NCBI GenBank assembly: GCA_003559395.1
Contig: PWLL01000094.1
Span: 1 to 19,246, forward strand
Length of the DNA: 19,246 nucleotides
Reading direction: 5' to 3'
Source of the DNA: Candidatus Iainarchaeum sp.
GTDB lineage: Archaea > Iainarchaeota > Iainarchaeia > Iainarchaeales > CSSED10-239
Each line of letters begins with the position of its first letter. Position 1 is the first letter of the stretch. The notes under the pieces are model-generated. The model was not told where the DNA came from. It did no database searches and saw only the letters and a list, made by a program, of their open reading frames with translations. Positions 2,944 through 19,013 of this stretch are shown in pieces. Both the position numbers and the translations under genes were made by a program.

Positions 2944-3417
2944 TTATTTTGATGACAACCATTTTGGAGGCTTTCTTTTTTTCCAAGAAAACAAGTGTTT
3001 TTTCTCACAAAGATAGTAGTTTCTATAAGCTTGAACAATGTTTTTTTGTTTGTATGTTTCAGGCATAGCAAGCACAAAATATTTTTTCTTAGATTTAAGA
3101 GATTTTGGAACATTTTTAAGATAAATCAATATTTGTTCTGTCTTATGATCTTTCATATATCTATAATGATATTCTTTTAATAAAGCTAAAAGATGTTTAT
3201 ATAACCAAACATAATTTCCTTTAGAATCGTTTGCCCAAACAACACAAGGATGTTTAAGATGTGTTGGTAAATATACTTTTTCTTTATAAACCGTCTCCTG
3301 TAACCAATGAACAGAAGATAAAATCTGTGCGCTTTCTAGAATCATCTTTACAAGATGTTTGTTACATAGCATTTTTGCTGCTTTTTTTGGACTTTTATCT
3401 AAAACAAAAACCTGCAT
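2944..3417 (-). CDS. Conserved hypothetical protein of the 'CDKH-xx-KM...ESAQ-x-LS' / 'H-x-x-HPC-xx-W' motif family
   Basis: The 157-aa ORF carries 'FVLDKSPKKAAKMLCNKHLVKMILESAQILSS' and 'HLKHPCVVWANDSKGNYVWLYKHLLALLKEYHYRY'. I recognise this motif pair from a widespread uncharacterised family seen mostly in phage, large-virus and bacterial genomes. I cannot name a verified function. The overlapping ORFs 2730..3113(-) and 2995..3180(+) are low-complexity shadows. Confidence 0.75.
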   Translation of the reverse strand: MQVFVLDKSPKKAAKMLCNKHLVKMILESAQILSSVHWLQETVYKEKVYLPTHLKHPCVVWANDSKGNYVWLYKHLLALLKEYHYRYMKDHKTEQILIYLKNVPKSLKSKKKYFVLAMPETYKQKNIVQAYRNYYLCEKKHLFSWKKRKPPKWLSSK

Positions 3418-8289: not shown

Positions 8290-8365
8290 GGGAGTGTGGC
8301 TTAGCCTGGTTTAGAGCATTGGTCTTATACACCAAGGGTCGCAGGTTCAAATCCTGCCATTCCCA
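8290..8365 (+). tRNA. tRNA-Ile (anticodon UAU), 76 nt
   Basis: Hand-folded cloverleaf: acceptor GGGAGTG/CATTCCC (one G:U pair), discriminator A, D stem GCTT/GAGC, anticodon stem TTGGT/ACCAA, loop CTTATAC (U33, then U34-A35-U36), variable GGGTC, T stem GCAGG/CCTGC. Outside the anticodon arm and variable loop it differs from tRNA-Ile(GAU) at 3656..3731 at only 4 positions. Confidence 0.85.
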
Positions 8366-8415: not shown

Positions 8416-10200
8416 ATGAAAAACAAATATAATGAAAAAATAAACTTTAAAAAAAACACGAAAATATTTTGGAATATTTTTAAACCATATAAATGGTTTG
8501 GTTTTTTGATTTTGCTTTTAGTTTTTTTAGAGCAAATCGCAATGCTTGTAGATAGATATCTTATAAAGATAATCGTTGATGAAGGTACAAACTTTGTATC
8601 AAAAACAATCACTTTAGTAGAAATACAACAAATCATATTTTTGGTTTTGTTGTTTTTTGGAATTTTGTTGATTGTTAAATCATTGACTGTTTGGTTTTAT
8701 ACTCATTTAAGCAACATACTAGACGCCAGGTTAGCTTACGATCTTAAAAATAGATTTTTTAACCATATAATAAGATTATCATATAAATTTCACACCACAA
8801 ACAAAACAGGCTCCCTAATTTCAAAACTAATAAGAGGAACAAGTGCTTTAGAAAAAATAGTAGATACGCTTTTATATAATTTCATGCCACTTTTATTTCA
8901 GTTGTTGTTAGTCTTAATAACTGTGATCTATTTTGATTTTTTATCAGCACTAGTTATTTTTGTTACGATAGTGTTGTATATCATGTATGGTTATTTGATT
9001 TTATCAAAACAACAAACCCACAGAATAAAATATAATAAAGCAGAAGATAGAGAAAAAGGAACTGTTAGTGATGTTTTTACAAATATAGACTCTATTAAAT
9101 TTTATGGTAAAGAAAAAACAATTTCAAGAAAATATACAAAACTAACAGACATAGTAAAAGCAAACGCACTTAGATTTTGGAACTTTTATAAATGGATGGA
9201 TTTTGGACAAATAATAATTATTGGTCTAGGAAATATTTTTTTAATATATGTTTCAGTAAATAGTTTTTTAGCAGGAAACATAACTATCGGAACTTTAGCC
9301 TTTATTTATACGACCTTTAATGTTGTTATTTCTTATACTACAGGAGTAGTTTATGGTATAAGAAGAATCTATACATCAATGGCAGACTTTCAAGAACTTT
9401 TCAAATACTATTGTGTAGAAAACGAAATTAAAGACAAAAAACATGCAAAAAAACTAATCATAAATAAACCAACAATAGAATTTAAAGATGTTACCTTTTC
9501 ATATAATAAAAGAAAAATACTTACGAAATTTAATTTAAAAATACCAGCAAATAAAAAAGTTGCTTTTGTTGGAGAAACAGGTGCAGGAAAATCAACTATT
9601 ATAAGATTGCTATATAGATTGTATGACCCTCAAAAAGGAGAAATACTTATAGATAATAAAAATATTAAAGATGTTTTACAAGAATCCCTAAGATCAGAAC
9701 TTAGTATTGTTCCTCAAGAATGTGTTTTGTTTGATGATACAATATACAATAATATTAGATTTTCAAAACCAAAAGCAAAAAGAAAAGAAATATTAAAAGC
9801 AATGAAATTTGCACAATTAGATAAAATTATAAAAGAACTTCCAAATAAAGAAAGAACAATAGTAGGAGAACGAGGAGTAAAATTGTCTGGAGGAGAAAAA
9901 CAAAGAGTCTCTATTGCAAGAGCAATTTTAGCAAATAAACAAATATTAGTCTTAGATGAAGCAACCTCTTCACTAGATTCAGAAACAGAACACCAAATAC
10001 AACAAGATCTTAAAAAGCTAATGAAAGGAAGAACAAGCATTATTATTGCACATAGATTGTCAACAATTATGATGGCAGACATTATTGTTGTAATAAGTAA
10101 AGGAAAAATAAAACAAATAGGAACACACAAAGATCTAATAAAACACAAAAGTATTTATAAAAGACTATGGACGATTCAGAAAGGTGGATATATTAAATAA
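8416..10200 (+). CDS. ABC transporter, fused permease/ATPase half-transporter (ABCB / MsbA-MdlB-type exporter)
   Basis: An N-terminal six-helix-type TMD is followed by an NBD. NBD motifs are Walker A 'GETGAGKST', Q-loop 'IVPQE', signature 'LSGGEKQRVSIARA', Walker B 'ILVLDEATSSLD' and H-loop 'IIIAHRLST'. Confidence 0.95.
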   Translation: MKNKYNEKINFKKNTKIFWNIFKPYKWFGFLILLLVFLEQIAMLVDRYLIKIIVDEGTNFVSKTITLVEIQQIIFLVLLFFGILLIVKSLTVWFYTHLSNILDARLAYDLKNRFFNHIIRLSYKFHTTNKTGSLISKLIRGTSALEKIVDTLLYNFMPLLFQLLLVLITVIYFDFLSALVIFVTIVLYIMYGYLILSKQQTHRIKYNKAEDREKGTVSDVFTNIDSIKFYGKEKTISRKYTKLTDIVKANALRFWNFYKWMDFGQIIIIGLGNIFLIYVSVNSFLAGNITIGTLAFIYTTFNVVISYTTGVVYGIRRIYTSMADFQELFKYYCVENEIKDKKHAKKLIINKPTIEFKDVTFSYNKRKILTKFNLKIPANKKVAFVGETGAGKSTIIRLLYRLYDPQKGEILIDNKNIKDVLQESLRSELSIVPQECVLFDDTIYNNIRFSKPKAKRKEILKAMKFAQLDKIIKELPNKERTIVGERGVKLSGGEKQRVSIARAILANKQILVLDEATSSLDSETEHQIQQDLKKLMKGRTSIIIAHRLSTIMMADIIVVISKGKIKQIGTHKDLIKHKSIYKRLWTIQKGGYIK

Positions 10201-13042: not shown

Positions 13043-16000
13043 ATGATAAATATGAAAAAAATAAATAATTTTTTAAAAATAAATTTTATAATAGTTTTAA
13101 TACTTATTTTTTTTGCAAATAATGTTTTTGCAATAGATACAGAACTTAACGAAAACCATTTCTTTTTTTGTAACGAACAAGAACTTTGTGATAACCTCTT
13201 TGAACCAAATGAAATCATATATTTAGAAACTACTTATCCTGAATTTAGATATGATATTGAAATATATAAAAATGATGTTATTTATGAAACATATAATAAT
13301 ATACAACTGCCAATGACTATAGACCTTTCAAGTGGACTATATGTATTTAATATTAATTATGAAGACAATACTTTTATAAAAAACCTAGTGATAGGAACAT
13401 CAATAGAAGACAATGATATCTATGATGAGGACAGAACAACCGTTGATCCTTTAAAAGAAGAAAAAAGAAATAATTTGTTTTATATTGTCTTGTTTGTAAT
13501 TGTGATATTGTTAATTGTTATTTTACTTAAAACAAAGAAAAAAAGCAAACCAAAGCCAGTTAAAAAAACAAAAAACCGTCGTAAAAATAGAAGATATATG
13601 AAATGTTTGTTTGTTTTTATTTTTCTTTTTATGTTGAGTTGTAGTGTTTTTGCATTTGATTTGTTAGAAGATTTAGAAATAAACAGATCAGATTTAGAAG
13701 AACTTTATCCATATCCCGAAGAAGTTTCTTTAACAATTATTCCTAATAATAAACATTATGAAATATATGTTCCGATTGTTAGTTATGACAATTTGTTAGG
13801 GGATATATTAAATGATAGAATTAAAATTTTAAATGAAAATAAAGAAGAAATTACTTCTGAAAAAATAAAAATAGACGCTTCACATGTGTTGTTAGCAGAT
13901 AAAGATGAACTTAAAATTTGGTCTGCTAGACATCCTTTGAGATCTGAACCCATGATGCGCAATTTTCCTTCGACAACTCCTTTTATTGTTGGTTCTTATG
14001 TTCGTTTAAATAATTATTATGATCAATATCCAATAAATGAAAACAAAAATTCATTGATTAGAAGAACAAGAAAAAATTTAGAATTGTTTTTTGGAAGAGA
14101 TCTAATTACTAGCTTAATTAGAGAAGACTTGTTAGTGCCTATGCCATATCTATTAACAATTATTGTTGAAAATCAACAATATAATACACAGAATTTTGAA
14201 GAAAAAGAAGAAGTATATTATTTAGACTTTTCAAACGCAACAGTTTTTCCTGCAGGAACACTAGAAGATATAAAAATAAATTTAAAATATGAAGATAAAA
14301 CAATTGATTATATAAAAACAGATGATGAATATAATGTCGTTCAATCAATGATTAAAGAATATGGTTGGAAAAATCAAAAAACAACAATTGCAGATCTTTC
14401 TAGTTTTAATTATAGAGACTTATTTAAATATAAAAACCATTTTAATAATAATCAAATAATCTTTACTAAATTTGATCTGGTAAATGATAAAACATTTGAT
14501 TTGTTTTTTAAGGATATAGAAATAAAAGATATTTTGGTTGCTCCGGATTTTCTTAAGGGACCAAAATATCATAAAGAACAAGGTTTACAAGAAATATTTG
14601 TATTAACAAAACCAATTACAGAAGACGAAACACAAGAACGTTATTTGTTAGTAGACGTATTTCATAATTATGAAGAAAAAGTAACCATTTCTGAAAGTCT
14701 AACAAATAAAAATAATACAGATTCTGGTCGCTGGTATAACCTTATAGACAATCATATTAACTTAAATGACCTCGATGAATTTAGAGATTATTCTTTTCCC
14801 AATTTAAGTGTTGCATTTAATTTAGAAGAGAACAGAATAAGTGTTTATTTTGAGCCTTTTAAAGGGCAGAATCAGATAACTCCCACGTTTATTTCTTTGC
14901 CTTTAAAGGTGGAAAATAAAGACGGAAGAAAAGTTAATGGCCGTTTTTTGTTTAGAATTAATGATCAAGAAGAACTAGATGTGTATTTTTATATAGAACG
15001 TTTAGAAGTTGTAAAAAGAATTAGTCAAAATGAATTTCATTTATTAAATATGAATTTGGATTTAGAAAACTCAAACTATTATTTATCAATTTTAAACAAT
15101 ACTGAAGAAAGAATTATAGAAAACAATTTAACCTTACCAACAAACGAATCATATCTAGAAACAATAAATAACTTTAATTTTGTATATAGTAACTACGAAG
15201 ATGAAAAAGATAAAAAACTAATAGACTTTACTGTTGCAAAACTACTTACAGAAGAAGAAAATACAGAAACAATAAATCTTTCTTTATTTAAACCGTATAT
15301 GGTTATAGGAGAAGACAACTATACAGAAAGATTAGAACAATTAATTGAAGAAAAATATAATCTATTAAAAGAAATTGAATATATAAAAAAACTAGGACTA
15401 ACTGATGTTGATTTTATAACAGAAGATTTTGATATTGATAAAAAAAGACTTGAACTAATAAGAAAAGGAAGACTAGGTCAAATTTGTGACCCAAGCGAAA
15501 AAATTTCAGGAACAAACGAATACTTGTTTAATATAAGACCAGAAAATGAAATAGAAACATCAGTCTATGCATGTGCAGGAAATGCAAATTTTAATAATAC
15601 TTGGATTGATTCTTATAAATATTGTTATAAAGAAGGTAACTTGTGGAAATGGTCTAGCTTTGTAAAATGGAACGACGCTTCATTAACACATCCAGTAAGA
15701 AAAGAATGTGCACCAATTGATAAAAGAAGAGCAGAAATTGCAAAAACAGCAACAACAGACGACCCCTGTAATCCAGAAAAAATGATGTTTGATTATGCAA
15801 CAAGACAAGAATTGTCTTTGTTTAATATAAAACACACAGACAAAGACTCATATGTATATGTTTGTACAGGAGATGGAAGAGCAAGAGTATGTGATGTTAA
15901 AGAACAAAAATGGTTGCCAATATTTGACCCAAAAAACACACGTGATCCAGAACATCCTGTTAGAGGATGTATTATAGAACCAGTAGAAGAGCCAGAAGAG

Positions 16001-17461
16001 CCAGTAAAAGAAATAGAATGTGTGTCTGGTGGAGAAGGAACACTACCAGACCCTATCATTGTTTGTACACCAGAAGATTTAGATAATGTGAGAAATGATT
16101 TAAAGAAATTTTATAGACAAGGACAAGATATAGACTTGAGAGATTATGACTTTAAACCTATTGGAGAAAGTAAAATGATTTCTGATTCAGAACGTGATGT
16201 TGATGTGCCAGTCGTTAACTCTTTTGAAGGTCTTTATGATGGAGGAAACTACACAATCTCTAATCTAGTAATTGAAGTTGAAGATCAAAGTAATGTTGGT
16301 TTGTTTGGTCTATCAAAAGGAATTATAAGAAACGTTAACATTGATAATTTTAGAATTGAAAGTAAGAAAACAGGAGACGCACATGTATCTTCTACAGGAA
16401 TCTTGCTAGGAGAAAATTTAGAAAGAGGCAATATTTATAACACAACTATAAAAAACAGCACTGTTAGAGGATATTCTTCCGTAGGCGCTATAGGTCGTAA
16501 TAAAGGAACAATATTAAATTCAAAAATAATTACAGAAGACGGAACAAATACAGTTGTTTTTGGAAACCAAAATGTAGGTGGTTTAGTTGGATATAATGAA
16601 AAAACGGGAAACATAAAGGATTGTTCAAGTGAAAATATTTGGGTTAGAATTAATACAAATAATCCTGTAAATAGTTTTTATTTTGGAGGGCTTGTAGGAA
16701 CAAATGAATATGGTAAAATTACCTCCAGTAAAGTAGAAAACTTAAGAATTAGAAGTGAAGAAGCAAACATCGTTGGTGGATTTGTTGGAAGAAATTATGG
16801 AGAATATAATGACCACATATCAGAAAGTAATGTGAAAAATACATTTGTTGTAGGTGAAAAGCATGTTGGTGGTTTTGTAGGTGTGAGTTCTGGTGAGGCA
16901 AAAGAATATGTTATAGGACAAACAGCAGATATTAGTCAAAGTTTTGTAGAAAATGTTGAAGTTAAAGGCGAAGAAAATGTTGGTGGATTTGTTGGGTTAA
17001 ATAGAGATTCGTTTATACATTCTTCCTATGGAATTAATATAGATGTAAACGGACATCAAAATATAGGCGGATTTGTAGGCTCAAATTCAGGAACACAATC
17101 AGAAGATCCATCAGTAATTGTTGATAGTTTTGTTAAAGAAGTAAATGTAGTTGGAGAAGGAAATAATGTTGGGGGATTTGCAGGACTAAATCTATATATA
17201 ATTTATAATAGTTATGTTACAGGGGATGTGAAAGGAAATGATTATGTTGGTTGTTTTATAGGAAATAATTTTTATGAAGGTGAATTTAAATATTATGATG
17301 AAAACTTAATTTCAAAGATTAATGTTACTTATTTTAGTAATGGAAATAATCGTGGATTTATGGGTAGTACCTGGCCTTCAAATTTTGCAACATATCATCA
17401 AGAAAATTTGTTTAATACGGTGATCGAGAATAATGGTTGTAGACTTAAATTAAATAAATAA
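13043..17461 (+). CDS. Giant surface protein (1472 aa). Domain order: signal peptide, small ectodomain, TM-basic loop-TM hairpin, approximately 630-aa orphan region, two 4-Cys modules, C-terminal GLUG-repeat beta-helix.
   Basis: The signal-like N-terminus is 'KKINNFLKINFIIVLILIFFANNVFA'. TM 'LFYIVLFVIVILLIVILL' is followed by the basic loop 'KTKKKSKPKPVKKTKNRRKNRRYMK' and a second hydrophobic segment 'CLFVFIFLFMLSCSVFA'. From nt ~16028 the GLUG-domain entry consensus appears: 'GGEGTLPDPIIVCTPEDLDNV...DIDL...KPIG...FEGLYDGGNYTISNLVI...NVGLFG'. About 11 '(N)VGGFVG-x-N' repeats follow. Confidence 0.9.
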   Translation: MINMKKINNFLKINFIIVLILIFFANNVFAIDTELNENHFFFCNEQELCDNLFEPNEIIYLETTYPEFRYDIEIYKNDVIYETYNNIQLPMTIDLSSGLYVFNINYEDNTFIKNLVIGTSIEDNDIYDEDRTTVDPLKEEKRNNLFYIVLFVIVILLIVILLKTKKKSKPKPVKKTKNRRKNRRYMKCLFVFIFLFMLSCSVFAFDLLEDLEINRSDLEELYPYPEEVSLTIIPNNKHYEIYVPIVSYDNLLGDILNDRIKILNENKEEITSEKIKIDASHVLLADKDELKIWSARHPLRSEPMMRNFPSTTPFIVGSYVRLNNYYDQYPINENKNSLIRRTRKNLELFFGRDLITSLIREDLLVPMPYLLTIIVENQQYNTQNFEEKEEVYYLDFSNATVFPAGTLEDIKINLKYEDKTIDYIKTDDEYNVVQSMIKEYGWKNQKTTIADLSSFNYRDLFKYKNHFNNNQIIFTKFDLVNDKTFDLFFKDIEIKDILVAPDFLKGPKYHKEQGLQEIFVLTKPITEDETQERYLLVDVFHNYEEKVTISESLTNKNNTDSGRWYNLIDNHINLNDLDEFRDYSFPNLSVAFNLEENRISVYFEPFKGQNQITPTFISLPLKVENKDGRKVNGRFLFRINDQEELDVYFYIERLEVVKRISQNEFHLLNMNLDLENSNYYLSILNNTEERIIENNLTLPTNESYLETINNFNFVYSNYEDEKDKKLIDFTVAKLLTEEENTETINLSLFKPYMVIGEDNYTERLEQLIEEKYNLLKEIEYIKKLGLTDVDFITEDFDIDKKRLELIRKGRLGQICDPSEKISGTNEYLFNIRPENEIETSVYACAGNANFNNTWIDSYKYCYKEGNLWKWSSFVKWNDASLTHPVRKECAPIDKRRAEIAKTATTDDPCNPEKMMFDYATRQELSLFNIKHTDKDSYVYVCTGDGRARVCDVKEQKWLPIFDPKNTRDPEHPVRGCIIEPVEEPEEPVKEIECVSGGEGTLPDPIIVCTPEDLDNVRNDLKKFYRQGQDIDLRDYDFKPIGESKMISDSERDVDVPVVNSFEGLYDGGNYTISNLVIEVEDQSNVGLFGLSKGIIRNVNIDNFRIESKKTGDAHVSSTGILLGENLERGNIYNTTIKNSTVRGYSSVGAIGRNKGTILNSKIITEDGTNTVVFGNQNVGGLVGYNEKTGNIKDCSSENIWVRINTNNPVNSFYFGGLVGTNEYGKITSSKVENLRIRSEEANIVGGFVGRNYGEYNDHISESNVKNTFVVGEKHVGGFVGVSSGEAKEYVIGQTADISQSFVENVEVKGEENVGGFVGLNRDSFIHSSYGINIDVNGHQNIGGFVGSNSGTQSEDPSVIVDSFVKEVNVVGEGNNVGGFAGLNLYIIYNSYVTGDVKGNDYVGCFIGNNFYEGEFKYYDENLISKINVTYFSNGNNRGFMGSTWPSNFATYHQENLFNTVIENNGCRLKLNK
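15485..15970 (+). repeat. Two tandem ~75-70-aa four-cysteine modules (protein-level repeat) inside the giant surface protein
   Basis: Module 1 is C815...C889: 'CDPSEK..LFNIRPENEIETSVYACAG...YCYKEGNLWKW...THPVRKEC'. Module 2 is C909...C976: 'CNPEKM..LFNIKHTDKDSYVYVCTG..RVCDVKEQKWL...EHPVRGC'. The Cys, LFNI, VY-x-C-x-G, KW and HPVR-x-(x)-C positions align. Confidence 0.75.
16292..17269 (+). repeat. About 11 GLUG-type beta-helix repeats with a ~28-38-aa period, also visible as recurring 'gttggtggatttgt(t/a)gg' in the DNA
   Basis: The repeats begin NVGLFGLSKG, STGILLGEN, SVGAIGRNKG, NVGGLVGYNEKTG, YFGGLVGTNEYG, IVGGFVGRNYG, HVGGFVGVSSG, NVGGFVGLNRD, NIGGFVGSNSG, NVGGFAGLNL and YVGCFIGNNF. Each is followed by an alternating hydrophobic 'I-x-N/S-S/C-x-V-x-N' strand. 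Confidence 0.85.
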
Positions 17462-17486: not shown

Positions 17487-19013
17487 ATGATAAAAAATAG
17501 AAAAAATATAAAGGTTTTTTTAATAATTGTGTTTTTTTGTTTAATACTAACAAATGTATTTGCAGAAAATACAGAATATATTAAACAATTAGAAGAAAGG
17601 ATTCAAGAAATAGATACAGAAATATATAGAATATTACAAATATCCGATAGTTTAGTGATTGAACTAATATCATATGATAATGAAAAACAAATAATTAATT
17701 TAAATATAAATGATGTTTCCTTTGAATATGATTTTTATAACAACATTTTAACAAGTGATAAATTTACTGAAGATGAAATTAAAAGAATAATAAAAATAGA
17801 TGAAGACTCTTTTGAAGCACTAGAATTAGAAGCAAAATTGTTTTATGAAGAAGAAAAAGAAGAAAAAACCCTAAAAGATACTGTAAATTTTATCGATATT
17901 ATAAATCCAGAAAAATCTTATATTATTTCTGAACAATATAAAGATGCTGAAAAATACGATTCTTTTTTTGAGTATTTTAATTATTTTTTATCATCAAATG
18001 ATGATAGAGAAGAAAAAATACAAACCTATTTTAAACAATTTTATAATAATTTAGAAAAACAAAAAAAATTAGAAGAATTTAGGAGAATGACCGAAGGACA
18101 TTTGACAAATATTTTTGACGGACGCTATGAAGATGATTTTGTTGTTTGTGAATATGAAATTGAAGATGTGATAAGAACAGATATTAGATTTGATTCTGAA
18201 AATAAAAACCAGAGAGTTGATTTTGAGCCCGGTTATACAAATAGATATCTTTATTTTAATAAAAAATTATATCCTACAAATAACCCAACAGACGTCAATG
18301 GTTATATTATTGAAATACACGACAATGATTATTTTATCTATTCCTTTTTTTCAAAGGAAAATAATCAATTAAGATATAATGTTTATTTAAAGAAAATATT
18401 AAATAAAGATAACTCTAATATAGAACCAAATAAAACTTACAAATATTCAGATGTTTCATTTGCACCTCAAAATGAAGAAAAAACAAATCAGATTTCTTTT
18501 TTTGTAGATATTAAATATTTAGAAAATGAGTTAAGAAAAGAAGATAGTAAAGATATTGTTGATATACTAAATTCTAGCAAAAATCAAGAGGTAATTTTAG
18601 TAGCAGAGATTACTTTGCCAAATTTATCTTTTGATTGTAATTACAATTTGTTTTATTTTGACCAAGAAAAAGAAATAACAATAGATGATGAACAAAAAAC
18701 AATTGATGATACAGAACATTATTCAGAAATTTCTTTAAAAAATAATTTTTTATTTAGTAACAATGTTTTACAAACAGAGGTTGATTTTGATAATAGATAC
18801 CAAAAATTAGAATTCTCTTTTTTTAATATGCATATTCAAGAAGAAGATAATCAAAAATACGGTTTGAGTTTTTGGAACACATTTAAGAAAAACATTACGT
18901 TTGATTTAACATATTCAGATTTATTTACTGCGACAAGTAAAATAGATAAAAAAATATTAGAAGAAAAAACAGATTCTCCTGTAGTAGGTTCCAAAGTTTC
19001 TGTAGATCCTTAA
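17487..19013 (+). CDS. Secreted orphan protein (508 aa), rich in Glu/Lys/Asn/Phe/Tyr
   Basis: The signal-peptide-like N-terminus is 'MIKNRKNIKVFLIIVFFCLILTNVFA|ENTEY'. There is no further hydrophobic segment and I recognise no domain. It starts 25 nt after the giant surface-protein gene on the same strand. Confidence 0.75.
   Translation: MIKNRKNIKVFLIIVFFCLILTNVFAENTEYIKQLEERIQEIDTEIYRILQISDSLVIELISYDNEKQIINLNINDVSFEYDFYNNILTSDKFTEDEIKRIIKIDEDSFEALELEAKLFYEEEKEEKTLKDTVNFIDIINPEKSYIISEQYKDAEKYDSFFEYFNYFLSSNDDREEKIQTYFKQFYNNLEKQKKLEEFRRMTEGHLTNIFDGRYEDDFVVCEYEIEDVIRTDIRFDSENKNQRVDFEPGYTNRYLYFNKKLYPTNNPTDVNGYIIEIHDNDYFIYSFFSKENNQLRYNVYLKKILNKDNSNIEPNKTYKYSDVSFAPQNEEKTNQISFFVDIKYLENELRKEDSKDIVDILNSSKNQEVILVAEITLPNLSFDCNYNLFYFDQEKEITIDDEQKTIDDTEHYSEISLKNNFLFSNNVLQTEVDFDNRYQKLEFSFFNMHIQEEDNQKYGLSFWNTFKKNITFDLTYSDLFTATSKIDKKILEEKTDSPVVGSKVSVDP

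Follow-up and report, generated by a model that had tools for sequence, protein, structure and literature searches.

Within a 19,246-nucleotide stretch of DNA from Candidatus Iainarchaeum sp. (contig PWLL01000094.1; the whole stretch is called the window below), an open reading frame (ORF) at positions 13043..17461 of the forward strand encodes a giant protein of 1472 amino acids (aa), which is the subject of this work. Its C-terminal part (the tip) belongs to the GLUG domains, and we count the protein as a new addition to the family of GLUG motif-containing surface proteins, with an unusually long orphan stalk and an unusual N-terminus in which two signal-like segments stand in tandem. From the N-terminus to the C-terminus, the following parts were distinguished:

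13043..13132, forward strand: signal peptide 1 (aa 1-30, ending ...IFFANNVFA/ID), basic at its N-terminal end and with its hydropathy maximum at aa 6-35; cleavage is predicted
13133..13471, forward strand: small acidic ectodomain (aa 31-143, with Cys43 and Cys49), orphan, 26 D/E against 7 K/R
13472..13528, forward strand: transmembrane segment (aa 144-162, NLFYIVLFVIVILLIVILL), the strongest hydropathy peak (3.31), presumably acting as stop-transfer
13529..13603, forward strand: polybasic loop (aa 163-187) that holds Met186, put in the cytoplasm by its charge count and the positive-inside rule; identical in contig L083
13604..13654, forward strand: second signal-peptide-like hydrophobic segment (aa 188-204, CLFVFIFLFMLSCSVFA/FD), with a hydropathy peak at aa 184-211 and a VFA end
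13655..15484, forward strand: orphan stalk (aa 205-814), mixed alpha/beta, no detectable relative
15485..16024, forward strand: Cys-rich neck (aa 815-994), part of the orphan region, with 9 of the 17 cysteines of the protein
16025..17332, forward strand: GLUG right-handed beta-helix (aa 995-1430), predicted from Pfam, homologs, AlphaFold2 and Foldseek; an entry module bracketed by Cys993 and Cys1008, and about 11 rungs
17333..17461, forward strand: C-terminal tail and stop codon (aa 1431-1472), predicted to be disordered from low model confidence

The ORF is uninterrupted in the window and has the length given to it by a first-pass annotation, which a model had made from the letters alone. Frame 0 is the sole open frame, with 28 and 31 stop codons in the +1 and +2 frames within the first 219 codons, and thus the ORF is a real coding sequence in this genome of ~26% GC. 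The NCBI gene call (P0001) begins at Met4 (13052) and gives 1469 aa, which is an alternative start. JGI contig L083 is identical to the window over 13043-14783, including the junction region around Met186, so the in-frame arrangement of the N-terminal parts is reproducible.

Homolog searches were split by region; the full-length query in a word-index search was saturated by repeat words and returned the self match only. Pfam GLUG (PF07581) matched the protein in four stretches with 72.4 bits (E=1.6e-20, cut-off 20.5), and with 87 bits when the tip was searched in isolation, while no other Pfam domain was found in the protein at E<=1, the threshold that holds for the Pfam negatives on this protein below. 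The entry module at aa ~996-1075 reads GGEGTLPDPIIVCTPEDLDNV...QDIDL...KPIG...FEGLYDGGNYTISNL and aligns to the consensus of 66 homologs, in which G5, P10, D37, F67, G69 and I78 are nearly invariant; the module described in the first-pass annotation is therefore literally present. Its count of about 11 repeats also holds, since a relaxed pattern recovers nine rungs of the xVGGFVGxN type and two degenerate ones (NVGLFG, SVGAIG) were recognised by eye. The rung motif is visible at the DNA level as repeat family D1.

Homologs of the tip are numerous (1439 at E<=1e-3, in many phyla) and typically share 28-36% identity over ~86% of its length. The best of them are only ~30% identical, and a close bacterial donor was not found. 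A single-sequence phmmer search of the tip against the PDB gave nothing significant. We then used a profile built from 67 sequences (A1) for the PDB search and for AlphaFold2. The profile matched 3n6z (BACOVA_03286) at E 1.8e-43 and the N-terminal domains of immunoglobulin A1 (IgA1) proteases 6xja, 6xjb, 7jgj, 7uvk and 7uvl at E 6e-23 to 1e-18. The AlphaFold2 model of the tip reached a mean predicted local distance difference test (pLDDT) of 86.9 and a predicted template modelling score (pTM) of 0.87, with short beta-strands throughout and the last ~40 residues disordered. Foldseek against the PDB matched right-handed beta-helices throughout and placed 3n6z first (E 3.4e-5, probability 1.00); behind it come enzymes of this fold, tailspikes of phages, the adhesin PfbA and the N-terminal domain of the IgA1 protease. 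A GLUG domain with a predicted right-handed beta-helix fold is thus supported for the tip by the Pfam score, the profile match, the model and the Foldseek ranking alike, as the first-pass annotation had proposed, and the large C-terminal part of the protein is predicted from its charge to lie outside the cell, which is also where that annotation had put it. None of the outcomes that the annotation had named as counter-evidence was seen.

At the end of the helix, pLDDT falls below 50 at tip-model residues 438-442 and 446-478. Of the C-terminal cap motif of the homologs (YWD...SG...TT.EM...TF..WDF..W....YP.L), no more than YYDENLIS and a scatter of W/F residues is left here, in a region that is of low confidence in the model and variable between strains. 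A motif and hydropathy scan of the C-terminus found no sorting motif, LPXTG or transmembrane segment.

The best solved relative, BACOVA_03286 of Bacteroides ovatus (3n6z, annotated as "putative immunoglobulin A1 protease"), is matched by the profile over the entry module and the GLUG rungs. It differs from the window protein in being a 363-residue bacterial chain of unknown function, without a stalk or a hairpin N-terminus, and the structural identity is ~16%. The M26 IgA1 metalloproteases of S. pneumoniae (6xja, 6xjb, 7jgj) and G. haemolysans (7uvk, 7uvl) carry a homologous GLUG beta-helix at the N-terminus (profile E ~6e-23), and in the pneumococcal enzyme the Fab of IgA1 is bound by this helix, which also controls access to the active site (PMC7695701). 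In contrast, the protease domain is absent from the window protein, and its anchoring logic is opposite to that of the LPXTG cell-wall-anchored enzymes. No HExxH or HxxEH motif was found in it, nor did Pfam detect Peptidase_M26, Peptidase_M26_N (PF05342), G5 or any other peptidase family. Pfam detected no autotransporter family, the C-terminal beta-barrel of type V systems was not found, and the organism is archaeal. The first-pass annotation had placed the tip with passenger domains of the IgA1-protease/adhesin class, and this needs correction: the relatives of known structure are BACOVA_03286 and the domains at the N-terminus of M26 metallo-IgA1 proteases from Gram-positive bacteria, and not autotransporter passengers.

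The layout of the family bears on where the helix would stand in the window protein. In the 63 homologs with a recognisable entry module, among the 120 matches listed, this module lies near the N-terminus (median relative position 0.08), and the C-terminal partners found among the 67 aligned family members include Ig-like, type IX secretion system (T9SS) sorting, dockerin and peptidoglycan-binding modules. The entry module of the window protein has a bracket of two cysteines (CVSGGEGTLPDPIIVC) that it has in common with only four of the 120 matches listed (P0080, P0098, P0108 and P0110), and all four have a hydrophobic or pilin-like N-terminus and a C-terminal GLUG domain. A fifth case of similar layout, weaker by Pfam scores, is the ORF at 6729-9842 of contig L023, an Iainarchaeota-like metagenome-assembled genome (MAG). 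Like these archaeal proteins, the window protein combines an entry module of the form C..GG.GT..DPII.C..EDL.N.RNDL with a C-terminal GLUG helix and a hydrophobic N-terminus. The closest in this respect is P0110 ("GLUG motif-containing protein [archaeon]"), which has an identical C-to-C spacing, 29% identity over the tip and an archaeal gene context. From these features we place the tip in an archaeal-type GLUG subfamily with a Cys-bracketed entry module.

The archaeal relatives differ from the window protein in what precedes the helix. They are 424-1037 aa long, and the four database homologs have only ~50-170 residues between the N-terminus and the helix; in P0110 the N-terminus is recognised by the archaellin/type IV pilin model TIGR02537 (24.8 bits, cut-off 20), and P0098 has a precomputed class III signal match. 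The window protein, on the other hand, begins with a Sec-type signal peptide and has an additional ectodomain, a hairpin of transmembrane segment, polybasic loop and second signal, and an orphan spacer of 790 aa, and it gave no class III signal or pilin match (PF04021 and PF07790 in Pfam; TIGR02537 in NCBIfam, E<=0.01). The bacterial and archaeal designs agree in having the GLUG helix and the anchor at opposite ends, and this layout rule argues for a distal tip, and for a distal binding role across the family. The distal geometry proposed in the first-pass annotation is accordingly supported, with the tip of the window protein opposite its N-terminal hydrophobic apparatus and the same arrangement in P0110, P0098, P0108, P0080 and the L023 ORF.

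Two observations on related GLUG genes were made in passing. The two best-scoring tip homologs, P0002 and P0003, are encoded in tandem arrays, each with three to six genes for GLUG-domain proteins (L086 5938-14334 and L087 72-11283), with one clustered gene product reaching 3069 aa, so GLUG proteins expand as local paralog families in some genomes. The 1037-aa protein of L023 (6729-9842) is encoded directly upstream of the thermosome gene in its MAG and shows a class-III-signal-like N-terminus, PEGA-/DUF5018-like modules, G-rich repeats and a C-terminal GLUG-like domain.

Between the N-terminal apparatus and the tip, the protein resembles nothing known. When aa 206-994 (789 aa) were searched with phmmer against 1.84e9 representative proteins, only the self match was returned. 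The stalk had no Pfam or PDB match, no tblastn match in 80 related loci and no significant internal repeats. The first-pass annotation had recognised no relative of the stalk, and its impression is strengthened by these searches. In the neck, 10 of the 17 cysteines of the protein fall between aa 815 and 1008 when Cys1008 is included, and this cluster would fit a disulfide-stabilised extracellular neck, in which we infer that the cysteines are bonded. A two-fold repeat of a Cys module (LFNI...VYxCxG) was considered here and rejected as not significant, its score of 38 comparing with a mean of 25 +/- 4 and a maximum of 39 in shuffled sequences.

For the N-terminus, hydrophobic segments were taken from a Kyte-Doolittle scan and sidedness from charge bias and the positive-inside rule. 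The scan of the whole protein gave exactly three hydrophobic segments (aa 6-35, 140-168 and 184-211) and none further on. The loop at aa 163-187 has 15 K/R in 25 residues and no D/E, and the acidic ectodomain before it is matched on the other side by aa 206-260 with 13 D/E against 3 K/R. By the positive-inside rule, this asymmetry points to a cytoplasmic loop, with the small N-terminal domain and the ~1270 C-terminal residues predicted to be extracytoplasmic. The first-pass annotation had described a signal-like N-terminus, a membrane hairpin near residues 150-205 and ~1270 residues outside; the hydrophobic segments and the outside placement stand, whereas the hairpin has to be recast as a composite of signal peptide, acidic ectodomain, transmembrane segment, polybasic loop and second signal-peptide-like segment. 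The ectodomain (aa 31-143) had no Pfam match and no tblastn match in the 80 related loci, and no homolog was found for aa 1-205 as a whole.

The second signal-like segment is the unusual part of this N-terminus. Residues 186-204 (MKCLFVFIFLFMLSCSVFA/FD) have the layout of a signal peptide, with a basic stretch, a hydrophobic core of ~11 residues and a small-residue cleavage region. Their VFA ending recurs in the N-terminal signal peptide of the same protein (NNVFA/ID) and in that of the next ORF downstream (TNVFA/EN), and the sole local BLASTP cross-match of the locus joins aa 181-204 to aa 3-26 of this downstream ORF (E 0.44). From this layout, aa 188-204 could act either as a re-insertion anchor or as an internal cleavable signal peptide. 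The protein reads like an in-frame fusion of two entire products, a small type-I membrane protein in aa 1-185 and a secreted protein in aa 186-1472. The basic stretch at aa 179-187 (13577-13603) also contains two Arg-Arg pairs (NRRKNRRYMK), which fit the twin-arginine consensus S/T-R-R-x-F-L-K poorly.

Given the predicted helix, the orphan spacer and the charge pattern of the N-terminus, the best joint explanation is probably a Sec-exported surface protein whose C-terminal GLUG helix serves as a distal ligand-binding module. The N-terminus would begin with a cleavable signal peptide, followed by an acidic ectodomain of 113 aa, a transmembrane segment, a polybasic loop in the cytoplasm and a further segment, similar to a signal peptide, that restarts translocation, and the GLUG beta-helix of ~440 residues would stand at the far end of a species-specific stalk and Cys-rich neck of ~790 residues. 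There it would most likely bind an external ligand, for example the envelope of another cell, a polymer or a surface. Experiments are available for a single GLUG helix, that of the pneumococcal IgA1 protease, where they demonstrate the binding of a protein ligand, and this is extended to the window protein by analogy. An adhesin role is plausible on these grounds, and host contact is speculative.

Several points weigh against this explanation. The Foldseek TM-scores of the tip are low (0.2-0.37), as is usual for beta-helices that differ in length, and the single-sequence AlphaFold2 model of the stalk is unusable (pLDDT 32). The sidedness of the segments is derived from hydropathy and charge. 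By its layout the second hydrophobic segment may be cut, and nothing anchors the C-terminus, so that the N-terminal anchor, which the first-pass annotation had taken as given, is uncertain, as is retention at the surface; from the sequence we consider tethering of the large part and its release after VFA204, before Phe205, about equally probable. Finally, the Iainarchaeota are described as putatively free-living (PMC12892359), which weakens host contact in particular and makes it only one of several possible targets. The first-pass annotation had spoken of a reduced, probably episymbiotic archaeon, a description that does not sit well with the thermosome gene of the window, which places the organism in this Iainarchaeota/Diapherotrites-like group.

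The strongest alternative, which we hold to be possible, is that the gene encodes a polyprotein-like precursor and arose from two former genes joined in frame, one for a small type-I membrane protein (aa 1-185) and the other for a secreted giant (from Met186 onward) that is not anchored at its N-terminus. Signal peptidase would cut after VFA30 and VFA204, and the resulting GLUG protein of 1268 aa would be released or held non-covalently by the small membrane product or the cell envelope; a cut between residues 204 and 205 would release this part, since it has no C-terminal transmembrane segment or sorting signal. Such a precursor is suggested by the full signal-peptide layout of aa 186-204, in which SCSVFA puts small residues at -3 and -1, by the VFA end that matches both genuine N-terminal signal peptides at the locus, by the BLASTP match of the second segment to the signal peptide of the downstream ORF and no other, and by aa 1-185, which taken alone consist of signal peptide, ectodomain, transmembrane segment and basic tail. 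Short hydrophobic cores are said, after work by Nilsson, Whitley and von Heijne in 1994, to favour cleavage over signal-anchor behaviour, and internal signal peptides of multi-spanning precursors are known to be processed by signal peptidase in viral polyproteins. However, there is no stop codon or frameshift between the halves, and the same sequence stands in a second assembly; no standalone homolog of either half was found that would document a two-gene ancestor. Nor did we find a description in the literature consulted of internal signal peptide cleavage in archaea or of such processing for archaeal surface proteins. Met186 also lacks a preceding Shine-Dalgarno-like motif, although this is true of most genes here, the motif being clear only at the thermosome gene.

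A more elaborate form of the same idea, which we consider quite unlikely, would have the single precursor cut at the two VFA sites into a small hairpin membrane protein and a free GLUG-tipped protein of 1268 aa, made 1:1, with the latter docking back onto the small product. This product would consist of the acidic ectodomain, the transmembrane segment, the polybasic loop and the retained second signal, and one gene would then provide both dock and adhesin.

Another reading keeps the surface protein with its binding helix and changes the target. The protein would attach the cell to something other than a host (a mineral or organic surface, sister cells or the matrix of a biofilm) or form part of the cell envelope of the organism itself. 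The putatively free-living habit of the Iainarchaeota speaks for it, as do the wide occurrence of GLUG proteins in free-living Planctomycetota, in Bacteroidota-type T9SS cargo and in Firmicutes, and the sample name SL_3KL_010_SED, which suggests sediment. Nevertheless, we judge it somewhat unlikely: the gene is species-specific and inserted in a conserved block, and this fits a fast-turnover interaction protein better than a core envelope component.

Highly doubtful is a catalytic helix, with the tip working as a polysaccharide lyase, a hydrolase or an epimerase-like enzyme on extracellular polymers (envelope glycans of a host or neighbour, or extracellular polymeric substances). It is true that after 3n6z the Foldseek list is dominated by a fucoidan lyase, polygalacturonases, alginate epimerases and lyases, and phage depolymerase tailspikes. 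Yet none of these matches has an E value better than 2e-3, the TM-scores are 0.2-0.3 and the identities 8-13%, so the likeness is that of a generic fold, and the relatives at the sequence level are GLUG helices, enzymatic activity being not described for the pneumococcal one (PMC7695701). No glycoside hydrolase or lyase family was found by Pfam, and the protein has no HExxH motif.

That the ORF is an artefact, two adjoining genes that an error of assembly or of homopolymer length in the A-rich stretch 13538-13575 had joined, is scarcely credible: the A7 run at 13538-13544 and a +1 frame that stays open over 24 codons until the ATGA at 13598-13601, where its TGA and the ATG of Met186 overlap as stop and start typically do, would suit it, but this 24-codon stretch is the sole support for a frameshift, the in-frame translation yields a textbook polybasic cytoplasmic tail, and the junction is identical in L083, for which reason we rejected a frameshift or two-gene artefact.

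The contact of DPANN archaea with other cells and surfaces is largely unknown, and few candidate proteins carry a recognisable and structurally understood binding module. In the window protein the tip offers a tractable handle, since the confidently modelled GLUG beta-helix could be expressed alone for ligand tests, and the possible internal cleavage of the tandem-signal N-terminus is a directly checkable question of processing. The SPEARE proteins of Nanohaloarchaeota, with 3,315-8,553 aa and laminin-G, serine protease and cytoplasmic type III restriction-enzyme domains (PMC6642349), are a further case of very large, mostly extracytoplasmic DPANN proteins proposed for cell contact, one version with its transmembrane segment towards the N-terminus. 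Unlike them, the window protein has none of the SPEARE domains detectable by Pfam, and the likeness is one of function only, without shown homology. Current understanding is not overturned by these results, because genes are routinely annotated as "GLUG motif-containing protein" and DPANN genomes can be expected to encode giant surface proteins that are orphans.

The genes around the giant gene encode a thermosome, an RsmB/F methyltransferase, a NIP7-like protein, a Na+/H+ exchanger and an ATP-binding cassette (ABC) exporter. The thermosome is up to 77% identical to those of archaeal MAGs, 63-76% to those of MAGs labelled Candidatus (I)ainarchaeum or Diapherotrites, and 59% to that of AR10; these matches place the organism, a small-genome archaeon of the DPANN type, among Iainarchaeota/Diapherotrites-like MAGs, and together with the NIP7-like gene they show it to be archaeal. 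In relatives, the syntenic block consists of orf517, orf347, RsmB, orf152, thermosome, orf107, orf461 and the Na/H exchanger, and a gene of ~950 aa resembling class-I aminoacyl-tRNA synthetases (aaRS; YYFIDGPPYASG) follows directly after the exchanger or orf461. In the strain contig L001, which extends 462 bp beyond the end of the window, the aaRS-like gene comes only after the next ORF downstream of the giant gene. From these positions, the giant gene and this second ORF together form a species-specific insertion of ~6 kb. The co-inserted ORF is:

17487..19013, forward strand: ORF of 508 aa with a signal peptide (...LILTNVFA/EN), an orphan secreted protein by its translation

The 508-aa ORF had no Pfam match, was absent from the 80 related loci and was present only in the same-species contigs L001 and L002; its product is a possible partner of the giant protein. 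A mobile-element origin of the insertion was considered and rejected, since there is no integrase, the flanks hold only AT-rich chance repeats and the GC content is that of the rest of the contig.

The giant gene was found in one sample family only (JGI 3300000563 "SL_3KL_010_SED"; SRR490128/9), and the only same-species contigs were near-identical ones, with 99.2-99.9% DNA identity. The contig name might point to a soda lake; a literature search on the sample accessions gave nothing relevant. Between L001 and the window, there are no differences over the 590 nt of helix covered, and all three differences in the part of the giant gene that L001 overlaps lie in the disordered tail (17428-17451): E1462D, N1464S and a stop at codon 1470 that removes the last three residues. 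A hypervariable tip, which the first-pass annotation had suggested looking for, finds no support in this comparison, which comprises a single strain variant and minimal data. Elsewhere, 12 of the 20 differences between the window and L001 fall within a 23-nt patch (18545-18567) of the ORF at 17487-19013, which may be a replaced or re-aligned segment or a local variable spot.

Other features were noticed in the window. A tRNA-Ile gene with the uncommon anticodon TAT (UAU) lies at 8290-8365, immediately upstream of the ABC exporter gene at 8416-10200 (ABC_membrane and ABC_tran). This exporter gene had no tblastn match in the 80 syntenic relative loci and looks like a second species-specific insertion, beside a tRNA gene. 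The ORF at 290-1843 encodes a 517-aa protein with a C-terminal transmembrane segment and a K/E-rich tail, found at the same position in nine relatives with 29-36% identity; it weakly resembles NCBIfam surface-associated families, below their cut-offs, and may be a conserved envelope protein of the lineage. On the reverse strand at 2944-3417, between two tRNA genes, lies the gene for a pyrimidine dimer DNA glycosylase, matched by Pfam Pyr_excise at E 2e-10.

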